Positions 1 to 59,743 of a stretch of DNA of 64,000 bases are shown here, piece by piece. The notes beneath the pieces were generated by a model. That model was not told where the DNA came from. It saw nothing but the letters and a program-made list of their open reading frames with translations, and ran no database searches. Both the position numbers and the translations under genes were made by a program. This DNA is from Eledone cirrhosa (taxonomy: Eukaryota): NCBI GenBank assembly GCA_964016885.1, contig OZ024745.1, positions 116,436,001 through 116,500,000 on the forward strand, read 5' to 3'. How positions within the stretch are numbered: the stretch's first letter is position 1; the number at the start of each line of letters is the position of its first letter.

Positions 1-835
1 AGTCACATACGTCAGCACTGTCAAACGATCCCATGGAGACGTCGAATAGGTCTGAAGTTGCAGACTTCTTTGCCCAGGCTACTTCGTCGTTGAAGAGTAG
101 GGCTTTTTCGGCAGTGAGCGATGATTTCCCTGTCTAAACCATCGACGGTGGTATAAGTGGTAGCGAAGTCCAACGCTTTGTTTAACAGGGTCTCTGAGAT
201 CGACGGGTAAAAATCGACAATGTCAAACTGTGTGAACTTAGCTTTTTTGGATTTTAAGGAGTTAAACCACTTAATTACGGAGTCGCTGTTCTCCCACTTG
301 GGCAGGTTGGACTTGGTCCTAATGATCTTAACTATGTTTCTAAGTATGGCCGTACTGATTAGTCCCATATCTGTGCGTGCCGGGTTTCTTAGTCTACATG
401 TGGGATTAGAAGTAAAGTCTACCTTGTGATCTTTCAGGGCGAGGGACGCCTCCCGCTTAGCTAGAGATTGTAGCTTCTTATCTACCTTAAGGTCGGCGGC
501 AAGTTCCTTGGCCTATGTATTAATGTCGTGGTAGGCCATAGGGTTAGCTTTCTTATAATTAGAAGTAATAGCGTTATGGACCAGGTGGGTGAAAGTGGTG
601 TTGTCGACTTCGTAAAATGATTAGTTTTGTCGGAAAGAACGAAGGTGTTATTAGAAGACCTAAATTTCTTAATATCATTTCTGAGTTTCGTTTAAAAGGT
701 GTTAGTGTGTTTGCGAAAGGAAATGTTAGCGACTAAGTCAAGAAGGTCCATCTCGAAAGGAGCAAGTTCATTTACCTTAGGAGGGTAGGCTCTAGATTTC
801 AGGTTGAATGTGTTGTTGGTGCCTGTAATTTTCCC
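1..835 (-). mobile_element. Penelope-like element reverse transcriptase fragment (decayed, runs off window start)
   Basis: Minus-strand translation gives W.NSDSVIKWF, KFTQFDIVDFYPSISETLLNKALDFA and IIAHCRKS, then FDVSMGSFDSADVCD after a frameshift at 1-46. These are PLE RT motifs. Confidence 0.85.
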
Positions 836-7739: not shown

Positions 7740-8281
7740 ACTTATTTTACGTCTCTCATATTATTGTTCTGCATCCCCATGCATTGAACCACAAAGTTAC
7801 TAAGACAAAACCTATATATTTGCTGGCATAGGTATGCATCTGTATATATATGTTAGTAAATATACTAATTCTTTATAATTATCTCCAAATTATTTTGTCG
7901 AGCCAAAATTAGCCAAAACTGCTACTATAGTTCATAGTAACAGTCCGGCTGCTGTCTTCTTAACAAACCACTCTTCACTGATTGACCTCGATGTCACGTG
8001 ATTGATTCTTTTGAATTTGCCACCGACGCAGTAGGCAGTGATTTTTTCAATGGCTTGGAACCTAGCCCACGCTTTGCTTTTTTCCATCCGCTGAATTATT
8101 TTTGTATAAGTTCCCTGTGTCCACGTATTGCCTGGAAACTTAGCTGAGAATAGACTTCCCTGATGACGAAAGGCTTCTCCGTACGTTTCTTCGGAAACTA
8201 CGTTTATTCCCTTTCAGAAACTAATTAGTTGGAGTGAAATGTTAGTAAGTAAGTTATTTTTTATAATTTTCTTATTTTAGG

Positions 8282-8290
<9 letters not shown>
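7740..8290 (+). mobile_element. ~530-bp HHR-bearing repeat (family C) with short terminal direct repeat
   Basis: Homologous to 42474-43080. CTTATTTTA(C/G)GTCTCTCATA occurs at both ends; the element ends in (TA)n. Confidence 0.8.
8155..8235 (+). ncRNA. Type I hammerhead ribozyme (family C)
   Basis: TTCC-CTGATGA-C-GAAAGG..CCTTTC-A-GAAA-CTAATTAG-TT^-GGAG, with palindromic helix III. Confidence 0.7.
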
Positions 8291-8356
<66 letters not shown>

Positions 8357-8357
<1 letters not shown>

Positions 8358-10205
8358 CGCGGGTAAAATTCCCGAGATCCATGGACGAGTTCTCTCCAGT
8401 GGTCTCTGTCCCTCGTTATCGCTGCCATGTCCTGCGTCTCAAACAGACCGGTGTCTGACCTTAGGGCATCAACATACGTTAACCTTGGTCTTCCTCTTCC
8501 AGTGTATCCATGTAGGGGCTCCCACTGGTGTACTGAGTGCAATGTCAACTCTGGATGTCGGTGAGCATGTCCAGTTAACCTCAGTCCCCTCTGTGTCACT
8601 TTTAATCCGACTTTTTGGAGGCTCCCATACAGCTCTGAGTTTTTCATCCTCAGTGTATACTGATTAATGTTCAGAGCCATCCTCAGCATTCTCGAGTAGC
8701 ACCCATCCACCATCTGAGTGAGTTTCTTGGTCAGTGTCCAAGTCTCAGACCCGTACAGCAGAACAGACTCCACTACAGCAATGAAGAGGCGGAATTTCAG
8801 GTCTTTACCAAGGTCCGACTTCCACACCGATCTCAAGCTGTGGCACGCCGCCCAGGCTTTGCTCTTCCTCTCAACCACATCATCTTCCGCATTCCCAATC
8901 TTTGCTCCCAAATACAGGAAGTCTTCAACCAATTCTAGCGTCTTCCCGCCAACATTAGTGATCCCCTCTGGATTCTCAACATTCTCTACCATATATTTTG
9001 TTTCAGTCTCATTCATTCTCAGACCCACACTCATCGACACAATCTCAACCTCCTGCATCAAATCCTCTGCCCCCTTCACTGTATTTGTCACCAAAACTAT
9101 GTCGTCGGCAAATTCAGCATCTGATACCTTTTACGCCTTAACTCTCCTGCTCTGAGCCGGTGCTACAGTAAAGCCAGAGTCCTGGTGTTTCTCCAATGCA
9201 AGGCGCATACAATAGTCCACTACGATGATAAAAAGGTATGGAGCCAATGTATCTCCCTGGAGCACTCCAGCCAGTATCTCAAAGAACTCTGTCATCCCAT
9301 CAGGTGTAATGACTTGGGCTTTGGTGTTGGTGTAGAGCAGTGATATCAGGTCCACTATCTTCTTGGGGATTCCATAAGCCTGTAAGATCTTCATCAGGCA
9401 GTGACGGTCCACAGAATCAAAGGCCTTCCTAAAGTCAATGAAAACAATGACCGCAGGAAGGCACTTTGCTCTAGCTCCCTCTAATATCTTCCTCAGCATC
9501 AGGATGTGACTGGTGGTTGATCTTCCCTCTCTGAAGCCGTTCTGGTTGTCCCTGAGCTTCTTCTCCATCTCATGCTTGATCCTGTTAAGAATCATCCTGT
9601 TGAGATTCATTGCCACAAGTGACACCAGTGAGATCCCCCTGTAGTTGTTGGTGTTAGAGAGATCTCCCTTTTTGGCACTGGGAATATGTTACTGATCCTC
9701 CACTGATTCGGGGCAACTGCTTTCTCCAGTGCCTGGTTACAGAACCCTGGGATGATATCATCAAAATCACACCTCTTCATCACCTCTGATGCCACTCCAT
9801 CTTCTCCATGAGCCTTGCCCTCCATGATCCGCTTCTTGGCTTTCTGAAGCTCCTCTCTGGTGAAGGGCTCTGTCTCAATATCCAGTTCCTAAAACAGCCG
9901 CCTGATCTCCCCAGTGCTCTGGGCTGTTGACGGTGGCTCTCCTAGTAGGGTCCTAAAATGGTCTAGCCATTTCCTCTTCCTATCCTCGGGCCCCTTTCCC
10001 TGATCTGATTCGAACACCTTCTCTTCCTCTCTGTGATCTCCTTACATGCAGATCTGTCAACCGCTCTCTCCACATTTCTGATCTTCTCTATCAGTGCTTC
10101 CTCTCTGGCCTCAGTGTAAGCGGTACAAAGTTCTTCCCTCATCACCTCCATAGTCTCCATCCCCTCTTCCGTAGGATTAGCATAGAATTGGTCCTTGGCA
10201 GCTTT
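8357..10205 (-). mobile_element. RTE-clade LINE, 5'-truncated decayed copy
   Basis: ORFs 9131-9625 and 8261-9094 contain QNGFREGRST, FIDFRKAFDSV, GVLQGDTLAPYLF, LLYGSETW and GRGRPRLTY. Closely similar to 15540-17414, with stops and frameshifts. Confidence 0.95.
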
Positions 10206-10233
10206 AGGGTTAGGGTTAGGGTTAGGATTAGGG

Positions 10234-10236
<3 letters not shown>
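10204..10236 (+). repeat. Interstitial telomeric repeat (TTAGGG)5
   Basis: TTAGGG x3, TTAGGA, TTAGGG, TTA directly at the LINE truncation point. Confidence 0.9.
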
Positions 10237-11764: not shown

Positions 11765-12240
11765 ATAAATGGAAAAAATTAACTTTCATTTCTCACTCTT
11801 AGTACCGATGATACTTAAATGTAAGTATGTATACGTACATACATGTATGTATACAGACGTACAGTAGTATGTATATACATACATACACACATATATACAT
11901 GTACGTATGGGTTTACCGAACATTTATTATAATGCTCGGTTTGTTTGTAAACAAACAGCCCGAATTATTAACCGTACAGTGTTCGGCAACCATCGCGGGC
12001 CTATTTGTTCAACACTGCAAAGGAACGATGAACTAGTTTCTAGCTTATTAGCTGTCATCAGCAACGTATACCTTTCTCTCAGTTGTTTGAATGTTTGAGA
12101 GTATATACTTTCCTTATGCATATTAACGGCTGCGCAGCCTAATTTGCATATCGAGTGAGTTAGTCGGCCGGGCGTAACGAAAACGATAAATGGAAAAAAT
12201 GAAATTTCATTTCTTACTCTTAGTACGGCTGTACTAAGAA
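11765..12240 (-). mobile_element. Diverged solo copy (1 unit plus ~50-bp terminal repeat) of the 479-bp family A
   Basis: Colinear with the 24437 unit (TTTCATTTCTCACTCTTAGTA, GCAGCCTAATTTGCATAT). Its start is repeated at 12186-12235. Confidence 0.85.
12025..12067 (-). ncRNA. Minimal hammerhead ribozyme (family A, diverged)
   Basis: rc: ACGTTG-CTGATGA-C-AGCT-AATA-AGCT-A-GAAA-CTAG-TT^-CATCGT. Confidence 0.75.
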
Positions 12241-14111: not shown

Positions 14112-17100
14112 GGGTATGACATTAAACTACATCCAGTGGCAAGGCTCCAGTTCGGGAGTTCAGGAGATGTGGGGAATGTGGAGTTACCCCTTAGCTGTCA
14201 TGACTCCCAGGTCTGCCCTGGCCCGGGGTGGTAGTACCTGTTAGGGCTCCATTTATGGGTTAAATAACTACCTTATTCGAGTGGCGCCGGTAAGGTATTG
14301 TCAGCCATTGAAAAGAAATATGGAGAGTCGATCTAACAGCACTAGGGTTAGAGCCCCTAATTACACTGTCAAGGAGCAGCCTGGTCATTATGACTCTGCT
14401 GGCTTAGAGCCACAGAGAGGGCCAGTGGATGATGGATCAGCTGTCTCTGAGACAAATATAAAGAATGCAGTTTTGTCGTGCAGAAGAGCCATCAAAATGG
14501 GCACTTTGAATGTGAGGACTATTCGAACGCTGGAGAAGAGAGAGGAGTTGGGACATCTGTTCGAGGAGAGTGGTATACAGATACTTGCGATCCAAGAACA
14601 CAGGATTCTACACGATGAGCCCGTGAGGAGTGTGATGATCGGGAGGAAGAGCCAGCTCATCACTACATCGGCAGTGAAGAACACAACAAATGCTGCAGTA
14701 GGAGGAGTGGGTTTTGTGTTCAGTGCAAAAACCAATTTGTTGGTGAGGAAAATAATGCCTATCTCCCCGCGAGTGTTGAGGGTGACCTTCAATGGAAACC
14801 CAAGACTGACAGTCATCTCAGCCTATAGTCCAACCGAGGGGGACAGTGAAGTGAATGCCGAGGAGTTCCATGAGGAGGTGTGTAGAGCTGTCAACACCAC
14901 TCAGGCACACAATATCCTGCTTGTTTTGGGGGACTTCAATGCACATCTGTGTTAGGAGGGCAGTGAAGATCCTTGCTGGTACTTCCATAACAACACCAAC
15001 CGAAATGGAAGACTACTGAGAGACACCCTGCTGGAGGCGAACTTGATGGCGACCAACCTAAGGTTTAGGAAGAATCTGGGGAAGATGTGGACCTACATCT
15101 CAGATATGCACCTGTCCAAGTCCCAGATTGATTTCATTCTGGTGAGGAAAAAGTGGCGGAATAGTGTTCTGAACACGGAACCATACAGCTATTTCAGTAC
15201 ACTGGGTAGTGACCACCGGCTTGTTATGAGTGAGGTCCGCGTGAGCTTAAGAAAGAGCAAGGCTCAGCCCCGGAGAACAATCTATGACTGGGGAGCTTTC
15301 AAGGAAGATGATAAGCTACAGGAGAGGTTCACAGTGGAAGTGAGAAACAGGTTTAGTGCTCTGTGTGGAGAGTCAGAGGAGAGAGAGATTGGATGGACTG
15401 AGGAGAGGGTGACGAGGAGGTACGGGCACTTCACCAATGCAGTGGCGAAAGCAAGTGAAACCCTGGTGCCGAGGAAAAAGAACAAAGGGAAGCACGTCAG
15501 CTCTGCAAACCCAAAAGTGTGTGCAGCCAGAGAACACCTGAAAGCTGCCAGGGACCAATTCTATGCTGATCCTACGGAGGAGAGGACGGGGACTGTGGAG
15601 GTGATGAGGGAAGAGCTCTGTACCGCTTACACTGAGGTCAGAGAGGAGGCACTGATAGAGAAGATCAGAAGTGTGGAGAGAGCGGTTGACAGATCTGGAT
15701 GTAAGGAGAGCTGGATGATCATCAACGAGATCACAGGGAGGAAGAAAAGGTGTTCGAGTCAGATCCAGGGAACGGGGCCCGAGGATAGGAAGAGGAAATG
15801 GCTAGACCATTTTAGGACCCTACTAGGAGAGCCACCCTCCACAGCCCAGAGCACTGGGGAGATCAGGCGGCTGTTTGAGGAACTGGATGTTGAGACAGAG
15901 CCCTTCACCAGAGAGGAGCTTCAGAGAGCCAAGAAGAAGATCAAGGAGGGCAAGGCTCATGGAGAGGATGGAGTGGCATCAGAGGTGATGAAGAGGTGTG
16001 ATTTTGATGATATCATCCTGGGGTTCTGTAACGGGGCACTGGAGAAAGGAGTTGCCCCGAATCAGTGGAGGATCAGTAACATCGTCCCAGTGCCAAAGAA
16101 GGGAGATCTCTCTAACACCAACAACTACCGGGGGATCTCACTGACGTCACTTGTGGCAAAGACCCTCAACAGGATGATTCTTAACAGGATCCAGCCTGAG
16201 ATGGAGAAGAAGCTCAGAGACAACCAGAACGGCTTCAGAGAGGGTAGATCAACCACCAGTCACATCCTGATGCTGAGGAGGATATTAGAGGGAGCTATAG
16301 CAAAGTGCCTTCCTGCGGTCATGGTTTTCATTGACTTTAGGAATGCCTTTGATTCTGTGGACCGTTACTGCCTGATGAAGATCTTACAGGCTTATGGAAT
16401 CCCCAAGAAGATAGTGGACCTGATATCACTGCTCTACACCAACACCAAGGCCCAAGTCATTACACCTGATGGGATGACAGAGTTCTTTGAGATACTGGCT
16501 GGAGTGCTCCAGGGAGATACATTGGCTCCATACCTTTTTATCATCGTAGTGAACTATTGTATGCGCCTTGCACTGGAGAAACACCAGGACTCTGGCTTTA
16601 CTGTAGCACCGGCTCGGAGCAGGAGAGTTGGGGCGAAAATGTATCGGATGCTGAATTTGCCGACGACATAGTTTTGGTGACAAATACAGTGAAGGAGGCA
16701 GAGGATTTGATGCAGGAGGTGGAGTCTATGTCGATGAGTGTGGGGCTGAAAATGAATGAGACTAAAACAAAATATCTGATAGAGAATGTTGAGAAGCCAG
16801 AGGGGATCACTAATGTAGGCGGGAGGCCGCTGGAATTGGTTGAGGACTTCCTGTATTTGGGAGCAAAGATTGGGAATACGGAAGATGATGTGGTTGAGAG
16901 GAAGAGCAAGGCCTGGGCGGCGTGTCACAGCTTGAGATCGGTGTGGAAGTCGGACCTTCGTAGAGACCTGAAAATCCGCCTCTTCATTGCTGTAGTGGAG
17001 TCTGTGCTGCTGTATGGGTCTGAGACTTGGACAGTGACCAAGAGACTCACTCAGATGGTGGATGGGTGCTACACGAGAATGCTGAGGATGGCTCTGAACA

Positions 17101-17420
17101 TTAATCAGTATACACTGAGGATGAAAAACTCAGAGCTGTATGGGAGCATCCCAAAAGTCAGCTCAAAAGTGACACAGAGGAGACTGAGGTTGGCTGGACA
17201 TGCTCACCGACATCCAGAGTTGACATTGCACTCAGTGCTCCTTTGGGAGCCCCTACATGGACACACTAGAAGAGGAAGACCAAGGTTAACATATGTTGAT
17301 GCCCTAAGGACAGACACTGGTCTGTTGGAGATGCAGGATATGGCAGCGATAATGAGGGACAGATACCGCTGGAGAGAACTCGTCCATGGATCTCGGGAAT
17401 TTTACCCGCCTTAGATAGAT
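14107..17420 (+). mobile_element. Near-full-length RTE-clade LINE (APE endonuclease + RT) inserted in (TA)n
   Basis: APE motifs GTLNVRT, ILAIQEHR, SAYSPT, LGDFNA, QIDFIL, SDHRL; RT motifs NYRGISL, QNGFR, QGDTLAP, FADD. One stop (14953-14955) and one frameshift (~16638); short TAGA tail; ~200-bp 5' UTR. Confidence 0.97.
14281..17414 (+). pseudogene. Disrupted RTE ORF (EN-RT polyprotein, ~1030 codons)
   Basis: ORFs 14281-14955 and 15043-16671 share a frame across one TAG. 16557-17414 continues after a 1-nt deletion relative to the minus-strand copy. Confidence 0.9.
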
Positions 17421-17706
17421 ATATATATATATATATATATATGGGCAGGGTCATATCGTTATAATATTGCCAGGAATAATAATAAAACGCACTCGCCGCT
17501 TAGATTTGATTGCTTTTCATTTCTGTATCTTTTATATATCCTTAGTTAATTTATCTGGCAATAAATGTTTATCATTGTTTGACCAACGGTTAAAACTATG
17601 GATATGAATATATATACAATACATTATGAAGAGAGAAGAAATATTAGATATAATTAGTAATAAGATATATCATACCTAAACTGCTTCTAAATTCCGTAAT
17701 GAGATA

Positions 17707-17796
17707 TCCTCTTGATAAGTCGGCAGACCTCACAAAAATTCTATATCTCTGTGATGTAGTGTTTTTGCATATGCCACGAAACTACGTAGTCGAGGA
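17707..17796 (+). ncRNA. Type I hammerhead ribozyme, U3-A8 core variant (family E)
   Basis: TCCTC-TTGATAA-GT(C)GGCA..TGCCAC-GAAA-CTACGTAG-TC^-GAGGA. Preceded by an inverted copy (17612-17695) of its downstream flank (17794-17876). Confidence 0.8.
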
Positions 17797-18473
17797 ATTT
17801 AGAAGCAGTTTAGGTATGATATATCTTATTACTAATTATTTCTAATGTTTCTTCTCTCTTCATAATGTATTATATATAGCTCTGATACTGAATCAGTCTA
17901 ATCCATTCGGATTGGTTTGTCCCAGTTATTCATAGAGCAACATCGGTTAAGGTTGGCACCACTAACTCATGGATATATGTGGATATATTCATGTATATGT
18001 ATGTGTCCGCATGTATCTGTGTTTCTCTATATATTGTATATATATATATATATATATATATAGTCTATAAAAGTTCTTTCATCACATACCTCTGATACCA
18101 TCAGTGGTACTATTATGTTTCCTCCCGTTGCATTGTAATGTTTATTCCATTTATTTTATTTATTTATCCTTATCTCTGCGCATGCGTTTGTGTGTGTGTT
18201 TTCTGTTTGATGTGTGGTGTGTGTTTGTGTCTTCGTGTCTGAGTCTGTGTTTTTGTATTCTATCTATGTTCACAAGTGTGTGTTTATGTGTTGTTGTTGT
18301 TATTGTACCTGTGTATATTATTTCATTTATATTTATCTTAGGTCAGTATATATGTGTTTGTGTATGGTTGTTATTGTTATTCCATTTTTTTTTTTGTTCA
18401 ACTTCGGTTTTTTTAATTCTATCTCAGTTGCTTCTCTATCTCACTTCTTTTCGGCAAAAGCAGGGGAGTACGT

Positions 18474-18515
18474 GGCTCTGATGAACGTCAACCAGCGTGA
18501 AACGGACTGTCAGCT
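18474..18515 (+). ncRNA. Hammerhead ribozyme (family D, C3-G8 core)
   Basis: GGCT-CTGATGA-ACG..CGT-GAAA-CGGACTG-TC^-AGCT. Helix I is extended by CTTCTTTTCGGC..GGGAG / CTCCC..GCCAAAAAGAAG. Confidence 0.75.
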
Positions 18516-19029: not shown

Positions 19030-19390
19030 TGACCTCTATTATTCTCCGGCTTACTGACCTCGTTCTCTCTCAGAATGGCTTTTCCTTTTCCTGAGAATTT
19101 TACCAACAGGTCTCTGTGGTAGCCATTAACATAGGGATGGGCCCAAACTACTATAACTTGTTCGTGTTATACGTTGAGGCCATAATCTTCACCCACTACA
19201 CTACTCCGATTCTCAACTATAAGGTCATTACATCGACGATTGTACCAGCACCACATCTCTCCTATGAACAACTTGACTCCTTTCTTTCTTTTCCCCAGTC
19301 TTTCCATCCAGCCCTCAACTTCACCACCCTAGTCTCTAACACTTCTGTCCAATTTCTTGACATCTCTGTCTTTTTGAACACACTCACCAC
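19030..19390 (+). mobile_element. Penelope-like RT core fragment (decayed)
   Basis: LTDLVLSQNGFSF.EFYQQVS.VA..GMGPNYYNLFVLYVE; TACATCGACGATTGT encodes YIDDC; FHPALNFT..VQFLDISV. Confidence 0.8.
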
Positions 19391-20375
19391 ACACGCTCCA
19401 TTGAGTACACTCGCCACGCACTCTCTGTCTATTGACCACACTCACCACACACTCTCTGTCTATTGACCACACTCACCACACTCTCAGTCTATTTACCACA
19501 CTCACCATACACTCTCAGTCAATTCACCACGCTCACCACACACACTCTATTGACTACACTCAACATGCACACTCAGGCTAGTGACTATACTCAACACACA
19601 CTCTCTCTATTGACCACACTCACCACACACTCTCTGTCTATTGACTACACTCGCCACACTCTCTGTCTATTGGCCACACTCACCACACACTCTGTGTCTA
19701 TTGACCACAGTCACCACACTCTGTCTATTGACCACACTCACCACACTCTCAGTCTATTGACCACACTCTCAGTCTATTAACCACACTCACCACACTCTCT
19801 CAGACTATTGACTACACTCACCACACTCTCTGTCTATTGACCACACTAACCACACACACTCTGTCTATTGAACACACTCACCACACTCTGTCTATGGAAC
19901 ACACTCAGCACACTCTGTCTATTGACCACACTCACCACACACACTCTGTCTATTGACCACACTCACCACACTCTCTGTCTATTGTCCACACTCACCTCAC
20001 ACACTGTCTATTGACCACACTCATTGTACACTCTCAGTCTAGTCTATTGACCACACTCACTACACACTCTCTCTATTGACCGCACTCACCACACACTCTC
20101 TATTGACCACACTCACCACACACTGTTAGTCTATTGACCACGCACACCACACTCTCAGTCTATTGACCACACACACCACACTCTCAGTCTATTGACCACA
20201 CTCACCACACACTCTTAGTCTATTGACCACACTCATCACACTCTCTGTCTATTCACTACACTCACCACACTCTCAGGCTATTGACCACACTCTCCACACA
20301 CACTATGTCTATTGACCACACTCACCACACACTCTCAGGCTATTGACTACACCCACCACACACTCTTAATCTATT
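19378..20375. repeat. ~29-31-bp minisatellite (CTCTGTCTATTGACCACACTCACCACA)n, ~30 copies
   Basis: Read directly; copies are imperfect. Confidence 0.95.
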
Positions 20376-24203: not shown

Positions 24204-24333
24204 TTTCTTCTTCTTCTTCTTCTTCTTCTTCTTCTTCTTCTTCTTCTTCTTCTTCTTCTTCTTCTTCTTCTTCTTCTTCTTCTTCTTCTTCTTCTTCTTC
24301 TTCTTCTTCTTCTTCTTCTTCTTCTTCTTCTTC
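24204..24333. repeat. (TTC)n microsatellite, ~43 copies
   Basis: Read directly. Confidence 0.98.
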
Positions 24334-24362
24334 ACCAACTTATTTCTGAGAGGGTCGTTATT

Positions 24363-24440
<78 letters not shown>

Positions 24441-24751
24441 TTGAAAAAAATGAAAACGAAATTTCATTTCTCACTCTTAGTATGGCACTTACTTAAATGT
24501 AAGTATGTATGTATACGTACATACATATATGTATACAGACGTACAGTAGCATGCATATATATATATATATATATATACATATATACACATATGCATACAG
24601 GTACACATACATATATGCACGCATCAGTTTAGCCGACGTTTATTATAACGCCTGCTTTGTTCGTTTGTTTGTCAACAAATCGAACAGCCTGAATTTATGC
24701 CATACGGTGTTAAGGCAACCACGTCACCTTTTTGTTCAACACTGACACAGG

Positions 24752-24796
24752 AACGATGTACTAGTTTCAAGCTTGTTAGCTATCATCAGCACCGTT
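24752..24796 (-). ncRNA. Minimal hammerhead ribozyme (family A); second minus copy at 25231-25275
   Basis: Reverse complement of the motif at 25731. Confidence 0.85.
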
Positions 24797-25730
24797 TACC
24801 CATCTGCCAGATAGTTGAACGTTCGAAAGTATATACTTTCCTTATGAAAATTAACGGCTGAGCAGCCTAATTTGCATATTGAGTGAGTTAAATCGGTCAG
24901 GCATACCGAAAACGATAAGTTGAAAAAAATGAAAACGAAATTTCATTTCTCACTCTTAGTATGGCACTTACTTAAATGTAAGTATGTATGTATACGTACA
25001 TACATATATGTATACAGACGTACAGTAGCATGCATATATATATATATATATATATACATATATACACATATGCATACAGGTACACATACATATATGCACG
25101 CATCAGTTTAGCCGACGTTTATTATAACGCCTGCTTTGTTCGTTTGTTTGTCAACAAATCGAACAGCCTGAATTTATGCCATACGGTGTTAAGGCAACCA
25201 CGTCACCTTTTTGTTCAACACTGACACAGGAACGATGTACTAGTTTCAAGCTTGTTAGCTATCATCAGCACCGTTTACCCATCTGCCAGATAGTTGAACG
25301 TTCGAAAGTATATACTTTCCTTATGAAAATTAACGGCTGAGCAGCCTAATTTGCATATTGAGTGAGTTAAATCGGTCAGGCATACCGAAAACGATAAGTT
25401 GAAAAAAATGAAAACGAAATTTCATTTCTCACTCTTAGTATGGCACTTACTTAAATGTAAGTATGTATGTATACGTACATACATATATGTATACAGACGT
25501 ACAGTAGCATGCATATATATATATATATATATATACATATATACACATATGCATACAGGTACACATACATATATGCACGCATCAGTTTAGCCGACGTTTA
25601 TTATAACGCCTGCGTTTTCGGTATGCCTGACCGATTTAACTCACTCAATATGCAAATTAGGCTGCTCAGCCGTTAATTTTCATAAGGAAAGTATATACTT
25701 TCGAACGTTCAACTATCTGGCAGATGGGTA

Positions 25731-25775
25731 AACGGTGCTGATGATAGCTAACAAGCTTGAAACTAGTACATCGTT
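25731..25775 (+). ncRNA. Minimal hammerhead ribozyme (family A), first of 11 plus-strand copies (CTGATGA at 25738 + 479n, last at 30528)
   Basis: AACGGTG-CTGATGA-T-AGCT-AACA-AGCT-T-GAAA-CTAG-TA^-CATCGTT. Helix I is extended by GTTCAAC..CTGGCA / TGTCAG..GTTGAAC. Confidence 0.87.
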
Positions 25776-28700
25776 CCTGTGTCAGTGTTGAACAAAAAGG
25801 TGACGTGGTTGCCTTAACACCGTATGGCATAAATTCAGGCTGTTCGATTTGTTGACAAACAAACGAACAAAGCAGGCGTTATAATAAACGTCGGCTAAAC
25901 TGATGCGTGCATATATGTATGTGTACCTGTATGCATATGTGTATATATGTATATATATATATATATATATATGCATGCTACTGTACGTCTGTATACATAT
26001 ATGTATGTACGTATACATACATACTTACATTTAAGTAAGTGCCATACTAAGAGTGAGAAATGAAATTTCGTTTTCATTTTTTTCAACTTATCGTTTTCGG
26101 TATGCCTGACCGATTTAACTCACTCAATATGCAAATTAGGCTGCTCAGCCGTTAATTTTCATAAGGAAAGTATATACTTTCGAACGTTCAACTATCTGGC
26201 AGATGGGTAAACGGTGCTGATGATAGCTAACAAGCTTGAAACTAGTACATCGTTCCTGTGTCAGTGTTGAACAAAAAGGTGACGTGGTTGCCTTAACACC
26301 GTATGGCATAAATTCAGGCTGTTCGATTTGTTGACAAACAAACGAACAAAGCAGGCGTTATAATAAACGTCGGCTAAACTGATGCGTGCATATATGTATG
26401 TGTACCTGTATGCATATGTGTATATATGTATATATATATATATATATATATGCATGCTACTGTACGTCTGTATACATATATGTATGTACGTATACATACA
26501 TACTTACATTTAAGTAAGTGCCATACTAAGAGTGAGAAATGAAATTTCGTTTTCATTTTTTTCAACTTATCGTTTTCGGTATGCCTGACCGATTTAACTC
26601 ACTCAATATGCAAATTAGGCTGCTCAGCCGTTAATTTTCATAAGGAAAGTATATACTTTCGAACGTTCAACTATCTGGCAGATGGGTAAACGGTGCTGAT
26701 GATAGCTAACAAGCTTGAAACTAGTACATCGTTCCTGTGTCAGTGTTGAACAAAAAGGTGACGTGGTTGCCTTAACACCGTATGGCATAAATTCAGGCTG
26801 TTCGATTTGTTGACAAACAAACGAACAAAGCAGGCGTTATAATAAACGTCGGCTAAACTGATGCGTGCATATATGTATGTGTACCTGTATGCATATGTGT
26901 ATATATGTATATATATATATATATATATATACATGCTACTGTACGTCTGTATACATATATGTATGTACGTATACATACATACTTACATTTAAGTAAGTGC
27001 CATACTAAGAGTGAGAAATGAAATTTCGTTTTCATTTTTTTCAACTTATCGTTTTCGGTATGCCTGACCGATTTAACTCACTCAATATGCAAATTAGGCT
27101 GCTCAGCCGTTAATTTTCATAAGGAAAGTATATACTTTCGAACGTTCAACTATCTGGCAGATGGGTAAACGGTGCTGATGATAGCTAACAAGCTTGAAAC
27201 TAGTACATCGTTCCTGTGTCAGTGTTGAACAAAAAGGTGACGTGGTTGCCTTAACACCGTATGGCATAAATTCAGGCTGTTCGATTTGTTGACAAACAAA
27301 CGAACAAAGCAGGCGTTATAATAAACGTCGGCTAAACTGATGCGTGCATATATGTATGTGTACCTGTATGCATATGTGTATATATGTATATATATATATA
27401 TATATATATGCATGCTACTGTACGTCTGTATACATATATGTATGTACGTATACATACATACTTACATTTAAGTAAGTGCCATACTAAGAGTGAGAAATGA
27501 AATTTCGTTTTCATTTTTTTCAACTTATCGTTTTCGGTATGCCTGACCGATTTAACTCACTCAATATGCAAATTAGGCTGCTCAGCCGTTAATTTTCATA
27601 AGGAAAGTATATACTTTCGAACGTTCAACTATCTGGCAGATGGGTAAACGGTGCTGATGATAGCTAACAAGCTTGAAACTAGTACATCGTTCCTGTGTCA
27701 GTGTTGAACAAAAAGGTGACGTGGTTGCCTTAACACCGTATGGCATAAATTCAGGCTGTTCGATTTGTTGACAAACAAACGAACAAAGCAGGCGTTATAA
27801 TAAACGTCGGCTAAACTGATGCGTGCATATATGTATGTGTACCTGTATGCATATGTGTATATATGTATATATATATATATATATATATGCATGCTACTGT
27901 ACGTCTGTATACATATATGTATGTACGTATACATACATACTTACATTTAAGTAAGTGCCATACTAAGAGTGAGAAATGAAATTTCGTTTTCATTTTTTTC
28001 AACTTATCGTTTTCGGTATGCCTGACCGATTTAACTCACTCAATATGCAAATTAGGCTGCTCAGCCGTTAATTTTCATAAGGAAAGTATATACTTTCGAA
28101 CGTTCAACTATCTGGCAGATGGGTAAACGGTGCTGATGATAGCTAACAAGCTTGAAACTAGTACATCGTTCCGGTGTCAGTGTTGAACAAAAAGGTGACG
28201 TGGTTGCCTTAACACCGTATGGCATAAATTCAGGCTGTTCGATTTGTTGACAAACAAACGAACAAAGCAGGCGTTATAATAAACGTCGGCTAAACTGATG
28301 CGTGCATATATGTATGTGTACCTGTATGCATATGTGTATATATGTATATATATATATATATATATATGCATGCTACTGTACGTCTGTATACATATATGTA
28401 TGTACGTATACATACATACTTACATTTAAGTAAGTGCCATACTAAGAGTGAGAAATGAAATTTCGTTTTCATTTTTTTCAACTTATCGTTTTCGGTATGC
28501 CTGACCGATTTAACTCACTCAATATGCAAATTAGGCTGCTCAGCCGTTAATTTTCATAAGGAAAGTATATACTTTCGAACGTTCAACTATCTGGCAGATG
28601 GGTAAACGGTGCTGATGATAGCTAACAAGCTTGAAACTAGTACATCGTTCCTGTGTCAGTGTTGAACAAAAAGGTGACGTGGTTGCCTTAACACCGTATG

Positions 28701-30967
28701 GCATAAATTCAGGCTGTTCGATTTGTTGACAAACAAACGAACAAAGCAGGCGTTATAATAAACGTCGGCTAAACTGATGCGTGCATATATGTATGTGTAC
28801 CTGTATGCATATGTGTATATATGTATATATATATATATATATATATGCATGCTACTGTACGTCTGTATACATATATGTATGTACGTATACATACATACTT
28901 ACATTTAAGTAAGTGCCATACTAAGAGTGAGAAATGAAATTTCGTTTTCATTTTTTTCAACTTATCGTTTTCGGTATGCCTGACCGATTTAACTCACTCA
29001 ATATGCAAATTAGGCTGCTCAGCCGTTAATTTTCATAAGGAAAGTATATACTTTCGAACGTTCAACTATCTGGCAGATGGGTAAACGGTGCTGATGATAG
29101 CTAACAAGCTTGAAACTAGTACATCGTTCCTGTGTCAGTGTTGAACAAAAAGGTGACGTGGTTGCCTTAACACCGTATGGCATAAATTCAGGCTGTTCGA
29201 TTTGTTGACAAACAAACGAACAAAGCAGGCGTTATAATAAACGTCGGCTAAACTGATGCGTGCATATATGTATGTGTACCTGTATGCATATGTGTATATA
29301 TGTATATATATATATATATATATATGCATGCTACTGTACGTCTGTATACATATATGTATGTACGTATACATACATACTTACATTTAAGTAAGTGCCATAC
29401 TAAGAGTGAGAAATGAAATTTCGTTTTCATTTTTTTCAACTTATCGTTTTCGGTATGCCTGACCGATTTAACTCACTCAATATGCAAATTAGGCTGCTCA
29501 GCCGTTAATTTTCATAAGGAAAGTATATACTTTCGAACGTTCAACTATCTGGCAGATGGGTAAACGGTGCTGATGATAGCTAACAAGCTTGAAACTAGTA
29601 CATCGTTCCTGTGTCAGTGTTGAACAAAAAGGTGACGTGGTTGCCTTAACACCGTATGGCATAAATTCAGGCTGTTCGATTTGTTGACAAACAAACGAAC
29701 AAAGCAGGCGTTATAATAAACGTCGGCTAAACTGATGCGTGCATATATGTATGTGTACCTGTATGCATATGTGTATATATGTATATATATATATATATAT
29801 ATATGCATGCTACTGTACGTCTGTATACATATATGTATGTACGTATACATACATACTTACATTTAAGTAAGTGCCATACTAAGAGTGAGAAATGAAATTT
29901 CGTTTTCATTTTTTTCAACTTATCGTTTTCGGTATGCCTGACCGATTTAACTCACTCAATATGCAAATTAGGCTGCTCAGCCGTTAATTTTCATAAGGAA
30001 AGTATATACTTTCGAACGTTCAACTATCTGGCAGATGGGTAAACGGTGCTGATGATAGCTAACAAGCTTGAAACTAGTACATCGTTCCTGTGTCAGTGTT
30101 GAACAAAAAGGTGACGTGGTTGCCTTAACACCGTATGGCATAAATTCAGGCTGTTCGATTTGTTGACAAACAAACGAACAAAGCAGGCGTTATAATAAAC
30201 GTCGGCTAAACTGATGCGTGCATATATGTATGTGTACCTGTATGCATATGTGTATATATGTATATATATATATATATATATATGCATGCTACTGTACGTC
30301 TGTATACATATATGTATGTACGTATACATACATACTTACATTTAAGTAAGTGCCATACTAAGAGTGAGAAATGAAATTTCGTTTTCATTTTTTTCAACTT
30401 ATCGTTTTCGGTATGCCTGACCGATTTAACTCACTCAATATGCAAATTAGGCTGCTCAGCCGTTAATTTTCATAAGGAAAGTATATACTTTCGAACGTTC
30501 AACTATCTGGCAGATGGGTAAACGGTGCTGATGATAGCTAACAAGCTTGAAACTAGTACATCGTTCCTGTGTCAGTGTTGAACAAAAAGGTGACGTGGTT
30601 GCCTTAACACCGTATGGCATAAATTCAGGCTGTTCGATTTGTTGACAAACAAACGAACAAAGCAGGCGTTATAATAAACGTCGGCTAAACTGATGCGTGC
30701 ATATATGTATGTGTACCTGTATGCATATGTGTATATATGTATATATATATATATATATATATGCATGCTACTGTACGTCTGTATACATATATGTATGTAC
30801 GTATACATACATACTTATATATATATATAGATATAGATATATATATATAGATAGATAATTTAATATATCTACTAACATAAGCGCACAGATGTACGCTAAT
30901 GCCAGCAAATACACAGGTTATGTCATAGTACCTAGGTGGTTCAATGCAGGAGAATGCAGAACAATAA

Positions 30968-31261
30968 TATAAAAGACGTAAAATAAGAAAATTTTTTTAA
31001 AAAAATTAAAAAAAAATTAACTTACTTACTTAAATTTTCACTCCAACTAATTAGTTTCTGCAATGGGATAAAGACAGTTATGTAATGAACTGTTGAGAAT
31101 TTCATTGCTGATGACGCAATGAAATTCTCAACAGTTCATTACGTAACTGTCTTTCTGTCTTTATCCCATTGCAGAAACTAATTGGTTGGAGTGAAAATTT
31201 AAGTAAGTAAGTTAATTTAAAAAAAAAAATTTTTTTTTTAATTTTCTTATTTTACGTCTTT

Positions 31262-31265
<4 letters not shown>
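30968..31265. repeat. Fold-back palindrome of a family C relative, hinged at the HHR core
   Basis: ~140-bp arms; centre CATTG-CTGATGA-C-GCAATG; downstream CATTGC-A-GAAA-CTAATTGG-TT-GGAG. Confidence 0.85.
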
Positions 31266-31329
<64 letters not shown>

Positions 31330-31335
<6 letters not shown>

Positions 31336-31885
31336 TGTATATACAGTGTGTTTTGCAATACACTGTATGCTTAATTAAGACCATACGCTATTGTTTTAAA
31401 CTAGTGACAATGTCACTTACTTAAATTTTCAGCAAACAGAGGACAAAAGCTGACAGAGCTCTGTTTCGTACTTGTCTTCAAAATGCTTTTAATTAAGCAT
31501 ACAATGTATTGCAAAATACACTATATATACATTCATATATATATCGCTATTTCAGAGCACTAATTCTAATTTTCAATTTCTGCTGGACCACCGACCGCTC
31601 TGTATAATCAATTCCTGATTACTACTGAAATTCTATAAGAATCCAGCACACATAATTTTCAGCAAACAGGAAGAGTAGTGAGCTTTGATAAGTACCAACA
31701 AGAACGAAACAGAGCTCTGACAGCTTATCTCCCCTGTTTGCTGAAATTTTAAGTAAGTGACATTGTCACAACTTTAAAACAATAGCGTATGGTCTTCAAA
31801 ATGCCTTTAATTAAGCATAGTGTATTGCAAAATACACTATATATAAATTCATATATATATCGCTATTTCAGAGCATAAATTCTAG
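31330..31885 (+). mobile_element. Family D element: inverted partial copy plus ~1.3 tandem units; HHR at 31681-31725 (U3-A8, cleavage triplet mutated to GAC)
   Basis: AGCT-TTGATAA-GT..AC-GAAA-CAGAGCTCTG-AC-AGCT. The inverted partial copy at 31448-31470 retains GTC. Confidence 0.8.
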
Positions 31886-32840: not shown

Positions 32841-32930
<90 letters not shown>

Positions 32931-32969
32931 CAAAATATTAATAAATGAAGACATTCACATAATAAAATA

Positions 32970-33035
32970 TGTTTTATTATATATATTTCGAAGGTACTGT
33001 GCTGTTGTTTCAGTATGTTCTCCTCAGATAAAATA
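32970..33035 (-). ncRNA. Minimal hammerhead ribozyme (family B relative)
   Basis: rc: TATTTTAT-CTGAGGA-GAACATACTG..CAGTACCTTC-GAAA-TATATA-TA^-ATAAAACA. Confidence 0.7.
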
Positions 33036-33053
33036 CATGAATATATATATATG

Positions 33054-33119
33054 TATTTTAACTGACGAGAGTGTACTGAAAAAACACCAGTGTACCTTCG
33101 AAATATATATAATAAAACA
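33054..33119 (+). ncRNA. Minimal hammerhead ribozyme (family B relative), inverted partner of 32970-33035
   Basis: TATTTTAA-CTGACGA-GAGTGTACTG..CAGTGTACCTTC-GAAA-TATATA-TA^-ATAAAACA. Confidence 0.65.
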
Positions 33120-33279
33120 TATATTTTGATTATGTAATTGTCTTCATTTATTAATATTTTGAATAATATTAATAACTCCAGAAAACTTTACTCTAGAGTG
33201 CTTTTAATCTATTGTAAATCTATATTCATTGAGTAATCAATGAACCATATGAACCATATGAATCATTGGTTATATATAC

Positions 33280-33700: not shown

Positions 33701-34607
<907 letters not shown>

Positions 34608-35422
34608 TTGTTTCGACACACGATTTCATATAAAAAAAACCTCCCAAAACTAATATATATATATATATATAGTAATAATAATAAATTTGAAGACTAAAAT
34701 CCATAGAGGGCTCGATAAGGATAAATATATATCAAATATATAAGAACCGTAGAGCAAATATTTATTAAAATAACAGATTAAAGTTTAAGCAAAGAATCGC
34801 TGCTTTCACCCTTAATGGGATCTTCTGAAACTAACAAAGTCAATCTGTGAACGCGGAAGTGAATATTTCAAAAAACGTTGCAACCGGAGGAAGACAGGAA
34901 GACGATACTTTGGTTCGTGGAAACGTTCCCTGGCAAAGAACGGGAATAAACGAATATAATACGTCATTATTTTGAGCGGTGAAACACAATTACACGCAAA
35001 GACAAAACCACGTTTATGGTATAAAAGAAGTCGTAGACTAATATTCTATTAGGTGGTTCATAGAGACGTTCTCTGGCAATGAACGAAAAAAACGAAAATA
35101 ACACGTCATATGTTGAGCGGGGAAAACAATTACACGCAAAGACAAAACCACGTAGACTAAAATTCTAACTAGGAAACCGAATGATTCTCGGCTTCAGAGT
35201 TAAGAATAAAGTAAAGAAAATACAGAGGTAATCGAAATTAAATAAATACAGACACGCATCCATATACGTACATACACAAGCATACGCGAAAACAGTCGCC
35301 ATAGGTATACAAATACACGCACGTACACAAAAAAAGAAAAAACCCGCACGCACATACAGAACCCACACAACACCTGTAACCGCATGCATACGAATGTATA
35401 CACCAAATACTCATAAAATTAA

Positions 35423-35469
<47 letters not shown>

Positions 35470-35713
35470 ATTAGTTTAGCGAGGTTTTTTATATGAAATC
35501 GTGTGTCGAAACAGATATTGTTATACTTGGGGAGGGTCATATTTGCGTAATATTATTTTTGACCGTCGGTCAGTCAATGGCAACATTGAGGACCGAGTAA
35601 GTTAGATCGAAGATATAAAAGACAGCGAGAAGCGAAAACCAACCAAACAGTGAGTGTGTTCTGTTATTAATTCTGGCAATATTACACAAATATGACCCTC
35701 CCCAAGTATAACA

Positions 35714-35809
<96 letters not shown>

Positions 35810-40996: not shown

Positions 40997-42304
<1,308 letters not shown>

Positions 42305-42473: not shown

Positions 42474-43079
42474 AGTTACTAAGACAAAACCTATATATTT
42501 GCTAGCATAGGTATGCATCTGTATATATATGTTGGTAGATATACTAATTCTTCATAATTATCTCCAAATTATTTTGTTGAGCAAAAATTTGCCAAAACTA
42601 CTACTATGGTTCATAGTAATAGTCAGGCTACTGTCTTATTAGCACCCCACTCCTCACTGATTAACCTTGATGTCACGTGATTGATTCTCTTGAATTTGCC
42701 ACCGACCAAGTAGGCAGTGATTTTTTCAATGTCCTGGAATTTAGTCCTCGCTTTTTTCCATCCACTGAATTATTTTTGTATAAGTTCCCTGTGTCCACGC
42801 ATTGCCTGGGAACTTAGCTGAGAATAGATCTCCCTGATGACGAAAGGATGTTCTCAATGTTGTTCTATTCGGAAACCATGTTTATTCCCTTTCAGAAACT
42901 AATTAGTTGGAGTGAAATTTTAGTAAGTAAGTTAATTTTTATAATTTTCTTATTTTACGTCTTTCATATAATTGTTCTGCACCCCCTTGCATTGAACCAC
43001 AAAGTTACTAAGACAAAACCTATATATTTGCCAGCATAGGTATGCATCTGTATATATATATGTTGGTAGATATACTAAT

Positions 43080-43080
<1 letters not shown>
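42474..43080 (+). mobile_element. Family C unit (~529 bp) with ~75-bp terminal direct repeat
   Basis: AGTTACTAAGACAAAACCTATATATTTGC.AGCATAGG at 42474 and 43003; paralogue of 7740-8290. Confidence 0.85.
42830..42912 (+). ncRNA. Type I hammerhead ribozyme (family C)
   Basis: CTCC-CTGATGA-C-GAAAGG..CCTTTC-A-GAAA-CTAATTAG-TT^-GGAG. Confidence 0.72.
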
Positions 43081-43142
<62 letters not shown>

Positions 43143-55506: not shown

Positions 55507-55599
<93 letters not shown>

Positions 55600-55604
<5 letters not shown>

Positions 55605-55905
55605 GAGTATATGTATAGTATATTTGGCAATATACTCTATGCTTAATTAAAAACATTTTGAAGACCTTGCGCTATTACTTTAAAGTAGTGACTATGTCAC
55701 TTACTTCTTTTTTCAACAAACGAAGGGAGAAAAGCTAACAGATTTTTTCCACACTGTTGGTAATCATCAGAGCTTAGCACTCGCCTACCTTTGTTGAAAA
55801 TAATAGAGGCTGGATTCTTATAGAATTCCAGTAATAATCAGGAACTGATTATACAGAGCGATTGCCGGTCCATCAAAAATTGAAAATTAGGATTGGTGCT
55901 CTTCA
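55600..55905 (-). mobile_element. Family D diverged copy; degenerate HHR at 55733-55774 with C3-G8 core
   Basis: rc: AGCT-CTGATGA-TTACCAACAGTGTG-GAAA-AAATCTG-TT-AGCT. Flanks are homologous to the 31.5-kb and 41-kb copies. Confidence 0.75.
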
Positions 55906-56644: not shown

Positions 56645-58123
56645 ATACATTAACAGAGAAAGCTTTAAGCGATACTCTGACCAACTCCATCTCACTCAAC
56701 AAACATTACGATATACCTAAGTATAATCCCAATTTAGTGTTTAGGGTGCTAACTATACAGTATTCCGTGGATAGCTGGTTGTATTATTTTATATGAGACA
56801 TAATTAAATAAATCTCTCTTTCCTTCCATACGATCGTTTCGTTATAAGATTTCTACAAATTGGGATAAATAATGTCCATATATATATCAGCGAGAAAGTG
56901 AAAGCCGTTGAACATCCCTTATCACAGTCTTGCTATCAATAAAGCAATGATTCAGTATTTCGATCACTGGAAACCTGTAACTAACGATTCCTACGACAAT
57001 TATATATATCATCCATACATTTCTCGAGCATATTGCAATCACATACCATTCTGGGACGGAAATATAATTATGAGGAGGATTCCTATCAAATATTTTGATT
57101 GGATTTACCACCGAGTCAGTTTTTAATTCCTTTTCCGTTTCTAATGTAGTTACCACACCTTAGTTGGCACATGTAACATAGAATTCAGAACCACTGTGGA
57201 ATAGAGCATCATTTAACTGTACTATTCAACCTGTACTTAATCACACGAAATGACAACATTATCTTCATTATCTGCTTATTGGCTTAATAAATTGGAATTC
57301 GATGTGGCTGTATTTCAATCGGAAACTTGTATTTGTAATTCCCTAAACGACTTTTAGTATAATTTCCATACTACCACATTTGAAGCCTAACACTTGGTTT
57401 TGGTTTGGGAGATTTCTTTTCCATCGCTTTCATTTCAATTTAGTAATGTGCCTAGATTTGGGGTAAAAAAAAATTAGTCATTCTTACCATTGATATAAAT
57501 CATTCAACACAAGGCGTATAGTTCAAATGTTTGTATCAGACACACAGTACGTACATACCAACAAACAAGTTGAGGCAATATATAGGCAAGATTTGGCTCC
57601 GGAGTTCTCAATCCCACTGCAAACCTTTATTGAATTTATTGAACCACAATGTTCATACCATGGTTTATTTCATGATAATTAATAATAGATATACATTAAG
57701 TAATTAGAGAAAGTTACGCAAGTAAGTAATGTTGTGGCTAGGTCAAAACTAGACTATACAAGCGTGCAGGTATAGATTAGTATCCAAGCTGCAACAGGAA
57801 ACCTTATTCGATTAACCACAGTACTTCAGAATACGAATATAAGCTTGGCAGAATCATGTTATATCTAGGTAAATATACCTGTTGCTCACGTCAACTCATT
57901 TGACCAACTCTTGGCTTACTGTATGTCTGAGAGGACCTAATTCTATAAAATATGAGACAACAATAACAATACTCCAACATGATTAATAAACATAAAGATC
58001 AATTTATATTCTATATTTATGACATATATCATTATATATTCTAGAGCATATTTGATTCTATCCTTTACCAGTTGTATTTCTACGGCTATAAAATCTAGAT
58101 TATATTTAGAATATTACATTAGA

Positions 58124-58751
58124 GCTTGACAATAATTTGTTATGTTATAATGCCAAGTATTCAAACGAAATTGATGAATATTTACGGTTTCCAAAAAGGT
58201 ACACTTCATATTATCACCAATATTTAAGTCATGAGGGAGTTTCAAATAATGTTCAATTTTATCATAGTTCGGAGAAACTGCTTCGTGTAGTACGTGCAGA
58301 ACCTATAGTTTTAATCTCATATTCTATAAATTATGCCAAACTTCCATTGTGTTGGGAAATACAATAAAGATTCGACAATCCTCAAGCATGATAGGAATTC
58401 TTTCAACCCAATAAAGAAACTAACCCAATTAACTTGCATTAAGGCTTGACAATAATTTGTTATGATATAATTCCAAGCATTCAAAGGAAATTGATGCATA
58501 TTTATGGTTTCCAAAAATGTACACTTCATATTATCACCAATATTTAAGTCATGAGGGAGTTTCAAATAATGTTGAATTTTATCATAGTTCGGAGAAAATT
58601 CTCCGTGTAGTACGTGCAGAACCTATAGTTTTAATCTCATATTCTATAAATTATGCCAAACTTCGATCGTGTTGGGAAATACAATAAAAATTGAATAATC
58701 CTCAAGCACGATAGGAATGTTTTCAACCGAATAAAGAAACTAACCCAATTA
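58124..58751. repeat. Tandem duplication, 320-bp period, two copies
   Basis: GCTTGACAATAATTTGTTATG at 58124 and 58444; TAACCCAATT ending at 58430 and 58750. Confidence 0.92.
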
Positions 58752-59743
58752 GCTTTATTAGATGTATTTACAAAACAGAAACATGTTTACATTATAAATT
58801 GCAGTGAATGAAATATATATTTACATACGATGAAAATAATATACAATTCCGCCTAGATGAAGTAAATATTATTAAGAGTTCTCCCGGAGCATCGATAGAA
58901 ACGTGCATTGTTTAAATCATATAAGCGTCCATAAATATATATTACGTTCGTATATCCTCCACGCAATATTATATTACAGGTTTGTCAGTTCTTTGAGGAC
59001 ATTTACATGAATTTAGTAAAAGATGCATAAATCATGAATGGAGAGCTGTAGAGAATCTGGCGTTAGAATTGATGACTGCTTCAATACGAGGTATAAAATG
59101 TTGACATGCATGAATCAGATGATTTTATGTTGACTGAACTCTGGGCTACGGCTTCTACGTAGTAATCCGCCGGATTCAGGTATGGAGAGCTAGCATAGGC
59201 CATGTGTTTGGGTTGCTACCATTGATTAGATTGCCGCTCATGAATTCCTGAGTCAACTTGGATTTATGCATCGGCGTAGGAGATTTTTGGTATGTGTAAT
59301 GCTTTGCTTTGCTCAAGCTCTCTATCCAAGGCTTCACAATAAAATCTCCTTAAATCTTATTTGTAAATAATATTATTCTTTGTTCCCCATTTCCTTAACA
59401 GGTTCAACATCACATCATTTTCTCTCCAACATTTTACACCAATACAAATTTGATAATGCATAACATGCTGAAACGGTAATAGACAATTATTAAAAATATA
59501 AATAAATAAATGCCATTGTCAATTAATAAATAAATTAACTAATAGCTTAACACTTCACACAAATTCAAATATTTTGTTTTAAACATTTTCTAACCCAGAA
59601 AATAGAGAAAAAAGTAAAAGGTAAAAATATATTTTTCTTCATAATAATCGTATTTTTCTCTCCCTAATAGAATATTACTCTACGACTTCATCTATACCAT
59701 AAACGTGGTTTGTCTTTGAGTGAAATTGTTCTCACCGCTCCAA

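Follow-up and report, generated by a model that had tools for sequence, protein, structure and literature searches.

The 64,000-nt stretch of Eledone cirrhosa DNA analysed here (the window) carries an array of a 479-nt unit, arranged as two arms lying head to head within (TA)n and totalling 6,382 nt, or 13.3 units. Judged from its sequence, the array appears to be a very young non-coding repeat that combines the anatomy of a non-LTR retrozyme, including a predicted hammerhead, with the two-ended footprint of a Penelope-like insertion. An origin in a single event, counting circular and linear templates together, is likely. As to the form of that event, we tentatively favour, with confidence a little short of even, a scheme in which a Penelope-type enzyme cut the (TA)n tract and extended both DNA ends from two fixed sites 64 nt apart, rolling on a 479-nt RNA circle. 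Very young multi-unit, two-armed insertions of this kind record both the start and the stop points of the enzyme, and the choices between circle and linear multimer, and between one RNA and two, therefore become countable in the genome and testable in vitro; the array, being a single locus, illustrates the pattern and does not decide it.

Layout of the array and its junctions

The left (TA)n target (24359..24438) ends in an ATA that overlaps the outer end of the insert, and both flanks of the array are TA repeats. The inverted arm (24436..25613, − strand) measures 1,178 nt, or 2.46 units, and covers unit positions 260 to 479 followed by the whole unit twice more. Followed from 25613 back to 24436, it agrees with the unit at every one of its 1,178 nt (0 mismatches), and the last matched base at its outer end (..CAACTTAT) is unit position 479, here called site B. 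At the inner head-to-head junction (25613) unit position 260 of the inverted arm is joined to position 1 of the forward arm, with a single base, C25613, common to both arms as assembled. The forward arm (25613..30817, + strand; 5,205 nt, 10.87 units) starts at unit position 1 (CGTTTTCGG) and consists of 10 full units, each exactly 479 nt long, plus 415 nt, so that on the outer side it finishes at unit position 415 (site A). The outer ends of the two arms lie 64 nt apart in the unit, and the intervening 64-nt ‘tail’ (unit positions 416-479; 24436..24499, − strand) is carried by the left outer end only. To the right follows a TA/GA-rich target (30818..30859), directly after which the next two-armed element begins (30860-31267). 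On the other side, a (TTC)43 tract lies at 24205-24333 beside the left flank.

The units are almost free of differences. Only two private substitutions occur in the 6,382 nt, 26931 (G>A) and 28173 (T>G), each confined to one unit of the forward arm, and the internal TA run is unchanged in 12 of the 13 units, the 13th being accounted for by the G>A substitution.

The first-pass annotation had described the outer end of the inverted arm and the start of the forward arm as exactly adjacent positions of the unit, with 1 nt shared at the inner junction and both outer ends merging into (TA)n. This description is borne out: C25613 is the shared base, TA repeats lie on both sides, and position 479 abuts position 1, given a breakpoint at 476-479. 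The range arises because 3 nt at the left outer end, ATA, could equally belong to the TA run, and ‘exactly adjacent’ amounts to choosing the last of the four possible breakpoint positions. With a random inner end, adjacency would be expected by chance in 2/479 to 5/479 of cases (0.4-1.0% per locus), a rate that applies to a locus picked after the fact, for its adjacency. Were a genome to hold a thousand two-armed arrays, this rate would make 4-10 of them exactly adjacent by chance.

Public contigs over 25575-25652 (runs X1, X2, X3 and X6, perhaps from another individual) were compared with the inner junction; none of the 26 of 144 pieces listed bridges 25613, and the longest covers 40 nt. In two contigs over the same interval, which spans unit positions 1-40 and 260-298, the template stops on its 5′ side at unit position 8 or 10 and meets a TA-rich or unrelated flank; both were left out of the counts given below.

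That the array is an assembly artefact, with units miscounted or homogenised or with a chimeric fold-back at the junction, is very improbable. The almost perfect identity of the units speaks for such an error, and assemblies are known to have difficulty with Penelope structures that are tandem or inverted (PMC8557442), but the two flanks differ and are unmirrored, the two private substitutions survive, and the outer ends both fall on TA joins, one of them at a site that an older copy has also used. Moreover, five other two-armed inserts in the window have the same layout with diverged arms.

The repeat unit and its predicted hammerhead

A hammerhead motif is found on the + strand of each forward unit, in agreement with the ribozyme sense assigned in the first-pass annotation. 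The copy in the first forward unit, a predicted minimal hammerhead of type I, lies at 25731..25775 (+), and the array holds 11 forward and 2 inverted copies of the motif. The predicted parts are a 7-bp stem I with one G-U pair, the core CUGAUGA at 25738-25744, a 4-bp stem II, GAAA and a palindromic CUAG, the last of which could pair between two hammerhead copies. Cleavage is predicted after A25768, which corresponds to unit position 156. A small hairpin, predicted by folding only, lies at 25618..25635 (+) and begins ~6 nt past site B.

Rfam returned no match at the gathering threshold, and a hammerhead only below it (HH9, 18.5 bits vs a gathering value of 52); Rfam miRNA matches, located on a TA-rich stretch, were rejected as low-complexity. 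Free folding of 25720-25785 was no better than that of shuffled sequences (z −0.27) and left the core buried, so folding energy does not support a ribozyme; the support comes from the order of the motif, the intact core in a 74%-identical copy and the variation within the family. The differences listed among family contigs are located in the stems, in loop 2 and at N7 and H17, with none in the core, and the stem I variants are partly non-compensatory (25771 T>G, and a U-U mismatch in the older copy). The 479-nt family is abundant and diverse in public runs: in run X1, 811 of the 3,421 contigs retrieved at 85% likeness are 99+% alike. Because the family is diverse while the units of the array are near-identical, the template of the array is taken to have been homogeneous. 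Scans of metagenomes with two motifs gave 0 loci each. No open reading frame of at least 120 aa lies inside the array, and a single low-complexity frame reaches in from the flank across its left edge.

The array is similar to metazoan non-LTR retrozymes, in which every one of the tandem, non-coding units bears a type I hammerhead (PMC7229834; 10.64898/2026.07.22.740005), and its 479-nt unit falls within their range of 51-972 bp. Mobilisation of retrozymes by Penelope-like enzymes, via tandem cDNA made from a circle, has been proposed (PMC7229834; 10.64898/2026.07.22.740005), as has a rolling reverse transcription that turns hammerhead circles into tandem cDNA (PMC7229834; PMC4209133), and hammerheads are also found in Penelope-like repeats (PMC4209133). 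Head-to-head arms, fixed ends and the junction geometry seen here are, in contrast, undescribed for retrozymes in the available text of these reports, where the word ‘inverted’ appears 0 times in PMC7229834 and once in 10.64898/2026.07.22.740005. For the array, hammerhead cleavage and circular RNA are predictions.

Start sites of the arms and the other two-armed insertions

An older relative of the 479-nt family is located at 11765..12229 (− strand). It is 74% identical, has a period of 421 nt, comprises ~1.1 units and retains an intact hammerhead core, and its outer end, joined to TA, is the equivalent of unit position 479. Because this copy, one independent copy, ends there too, position 479 looks like a family-fixed, Penelope-type start site rather than a chance primer of the L1 type. 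The spacing of 64 nt between the two sites in the array corresponds to one of 57 nt in the older copy. Site 415, at which no other copy in the window ends, is a putative fixed start site as well.

Similar pairs of ends recur in other hammerhead families of the window. In a family with a 320-nt unit, four of the seven arms end at unit position 48-49 and the other three at 72-82, and in a family at 33986-35717 two arms end at 312 and two near position 360, ~50 nt further. The outer ends in the array and in these families look like the Penelope ‘tail’ with fixed starts. Penelope-like elements end at fixed points, and the Penelope-like enzyme of the anole, a predicted dimer, cuts and extends both strands of AT-rich DNA, starting at two internal RNA sites whose spacing equals the tail (PMC11167929). 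Endonuclease-bearing Penelope-like insertions with an inverted pLTR and a tail share with the array a 5′-truncated inverted copy upstream, an apparent one-ended tail between putative internal start sites, a (TA)n target and a hammerhead with a small palindromic helix III (PMC8557442; PMC3846280; PMC11167929), and elements of the Hydra clade insert into (TA)n and carry hammerheads (PMC8557442). The array is unlike these insertions in having no open reading frame, in its multi-unit arms (2.5 and 10.9 units) and in a tail of 64 nt, compared with a published length of 30-40 nt. Both PMC3846280 and PMC8557442 describe inverted pLTRs and tails, and PMC3846280 puts forward self-priming on an antisense template as their source; the origin of the tandem, inverted and tailed Penelope-like ends is stated to be open (PMC8557442; PMC11167929). 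In the literature covered, which lay largely outside the subscription journals and was in part available as excerpts, nothing was found on two-armed, multi-unit retrozyme junctions or on twin priming applied to Penelope-like elements.

The motif AAGTAAGT is common to three otherwise dissimilar hammerhead families, at most ~110 nt from their ends (8247, 18540, 31020, 31201, 31415, 31751, 41175, 41447, 42925, 55699 and the 479-nt unit), and may be a protein-binding signal.

Contiguity of inversion breakpoints had been put forward in the first-pass annotation as a property to be checked across genomic copies, and as a general rule it fails among the neighbours: none of the five other two-armed insertions (41036, 31323, 33986, 35469 and 30860) is contiguous, the arms overlapping by ~70-300 nt. 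This count covers insertions with a usable family template, nine more fold-backs without a family template being left out. In these five copies both arms span the same template stretch and the arms have diverged; coverage of the same stretch by both arms fits two RNA molecules or displacement. Taken together, the two-armed fold-backs noted at TA tracts besides the arrays include those at these intervals (33986-34671, 35469-35717, 30860-31267, 31323-31884, 32923-33169 and 17436-17878), with the tail on either arm. Single arms slightly longer than one unit are present at 11765-12229, 42474-43087 and 7741-8292.

The 320-nt-unit family forms a two-armed array at 41036-42200, with 3.2 forward units, a 158-nt inverted arm and an 82-nt overlap. 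Within it (41190-42200), units 2 and 3 show no difference from each other; unit 1 departs from them by 7 bases and a 2-nt insertion (~2%), and the inverted arm has 2 differences in 158 nt, a pattern that points to later unit duplication or a mixed linear template. Copies of this family at 41382-41408 (and its repeats) and at 31685-31712 have the core UUGAUAA, not CUGAUGA, a double change that preserves the 3-8 pair, while those at 18478 and ~55765 (−) have kept CUGAUGA. A hammerhead core with U3-A8 retains some activity. The single 320-family arm at 55596-55902 (−) is almost exactly one unit long; it ends ~10 nt before reaching the site where it began, the outcome expected of self-collision on a circle. 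Other hammerhead-like motifs, representing at least four families, occur at 8160, 13943, 18478, 32616 (−) and 42834.

Priming, template and origin of the array

The first-pass annotation interpreted the geometry of the array as twin priming, and its target-primed copying from both DNA ends survives. In the form of twin priming known from L1, the second primer anneals by chance within the RNA and the first cDNA stops nearby (PMC2837659; 10.1101/2024.08.27.596794). The array shares with L1 twin priming and dual priming the use of two DNA ends as primers, the short target overlap and the head-to-head inversion, here an inverted 5′ segment set against a forward 3′ segment of the same template, as well as contiguous breakpoints, with a 0-nt gap (PMC2837659; 10.1101/2024.08.27.596794). 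Two other elements of the L1 scheme are not borne out, namely the chance internal primer, as site 479 was reused by the older copy, and the poly(A) primer at the RNA 3′ end. The right end of the array is an internal unit position, 415, with no poly(A), and does not coincide with the predicted cut site at 156; the second site seems to be family-fixed instead of spurious, and priming at a chance site through spurious complementarity does not appear to apply. The neighbours of the array are also unlike L1 in the size of their overlaps, 70-300 nt as against median deletions of 14.5 bp and duplications of 22 bp in L1 (PMC2837659; 10.1101/2024.08.27.596794).

The adjacency of the two breakpoints had been taken to favour a circle, an argument that does not hold: an enzyme rolling on a circle would already have gone past 479|1 ten times, and it is from a linear multimer that a stop at this point follows directly. 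Because the second site is apparently predetermined, the adjacency reduces to the long arm having stopped at 479|1. It is a true feature of the array, but it is neither diagnostic nor evidence for a circle, and gives a hint, not proof, of one template molecule. The identity of the arms likewise does not require one RNA molecule, because the exact variant is abundant in public contigs.

In the scheme that we tentatively favour, Penelope-type copying of a circle, tandem transcripts would self-cleave and then be ligated into circles, as has been shown for other animal retrozymes. Nicks in (TA)n would prime at position 415, with a TA overlap, and at position 479, with an ATA overlap, and strand-displacing synthesis would then take the long arm through 10.87 rounds and the short arm through 2.46; the simplest arrangement for this is a dimeric enzyme with two RNA molecules bound to it. 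Joining of the cDNA 3′ ends at one common base would complete the insertion, the long arm having stopped at 479|1 either by chance or because the enzyme paused where the start site was bound. The predicted cut site was passed 13/13 times without a scar, and template jumping over a nicked RNA in each round is disfavoured, since the unit boundaries and cut sites show neither gained nor lost bases.

Several observations count against the circle. The exact stop at 479|1 is not predicted by it, and late priming would probably be hampered on a circle already covered with its own cDNA. Of 13 non-focal 5′ ends, 2 lie within 15 nt after a start site vs 1.0 expected (P=0.27, from hand-entered coordinates), which gives no significant sign of a pause. 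The 64-nt tail exceeds the published length, and the unit pattern of the 320-nt array would be impossible to obtain from one circle. The anole enzyme used mainly uncleaved RNA in vitro (PMC11167929), and eight of nine Xenopus retrozyme dimers were without cleavage (10.64898/2026.07.22.740005). The most specific form of the idea, that one enzyme complex copied a single ribozyme-made circle more than 13 times from both ends of one cut, with the long arm halted at the protein-bound second site, is doubtful. If it were true, a single step would suffice to produce satellite-like arrays at full size, and the fixed sites would serve for stopping as well as for starting, which would account for the ends of Penelope-like elements, be they tandem, inverted or tailed. 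Single-event, Penelope-type writing of the array would help to explain the spread of such repeats in animal genomes.

A linear template would also give the array in one event, by twin priming on one uncleaved multimer of at least 13.3 units, with no rolling circle involved in this step: one DNA end primes at 415 in a downstream unit, the other primes at 479, eleven units further upstream, and the first enzyme is brought to a halt on reaching the second primer. This reading, which we regard as rather unlikely, predicts the exact adjacency, and the ratio of long to short arm, 4.4, departs in the same direction as in L1 twin priming (2.6-fold; 10.1101/2024.08.27.596794); uncleaved RNA is, in addition, the dominant substrate in vitro (PMC11167929). 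It demands, however, that 13 tandem hammerheads stay uncut, even though a dimeric active form is favoured (PMC4209133), and that a homogeneous source array of at least 14 units existed. A linear multimer is by itself unable to increase the number of units, and the contiguous breakpoints that belong to it were seen in 0/5 neighbours.

The preference of the first-pass annotation for one reverse-transcription event over later growth is upheld in part. With two private substitutions, identical arms, no microsatellite slip and no scar, a single event is likely for the array itself, although the 320-nt array looks duplicated later. The alternative, a short two-armed insertion of at least 1.87 forward and 1.46 inverted units that was later expanded by unequal exchange or slippage with its three junctions kept, must be considered unlikely. 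It is compatible with the geometry of the ends, the neighbouring 320-nt array has two identical units beside a 2%-divergent one, and local amplification via unequal crossover is favoured in 10.64898/2026.07.22.740005. Set against this, ~9-10 units would have to be added within 0.03% divergence with no variant common to units, and the rate taken from the neighbour, roughly one duplication per 1-2% divergence (n=1), makes 9-10 units unlikely.

A candidate for the class of helper enzyme is present at the left edge of the window, where a Hydra-type Penelope-like reverse transcriptase fragment (21..512, − strand) is 44% identical to P0013. Its full-length homologues carry the motifs RWK, DKT and CxCx5C, read by eye, which mark the Hydra clade. 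Pfam has no family for the fragment, nor for four of five homologues, and a search of the PDB gave nothing useful. The fragment shows that such enzymes exist in the host, as a candidate helper class that is unlinked to the 479-nt family. The window also contains a broken LINE at 14245-17414 (+) with endonuclease and reverse transcriptase matches, which we take to be an RTE element, together with an inverted partial copy at 8326-10205 (−) at 93%. Some 5.5 copies of TTAGGG lie at 10204-10236. A short reverse transcriptase-like frame with no Pfam match is found at 19095-20366, followed by a 29-31-nt minisatellite of ~34 copies, and an unrelated 320-nt repeat is present in two copies at 58114-58755.
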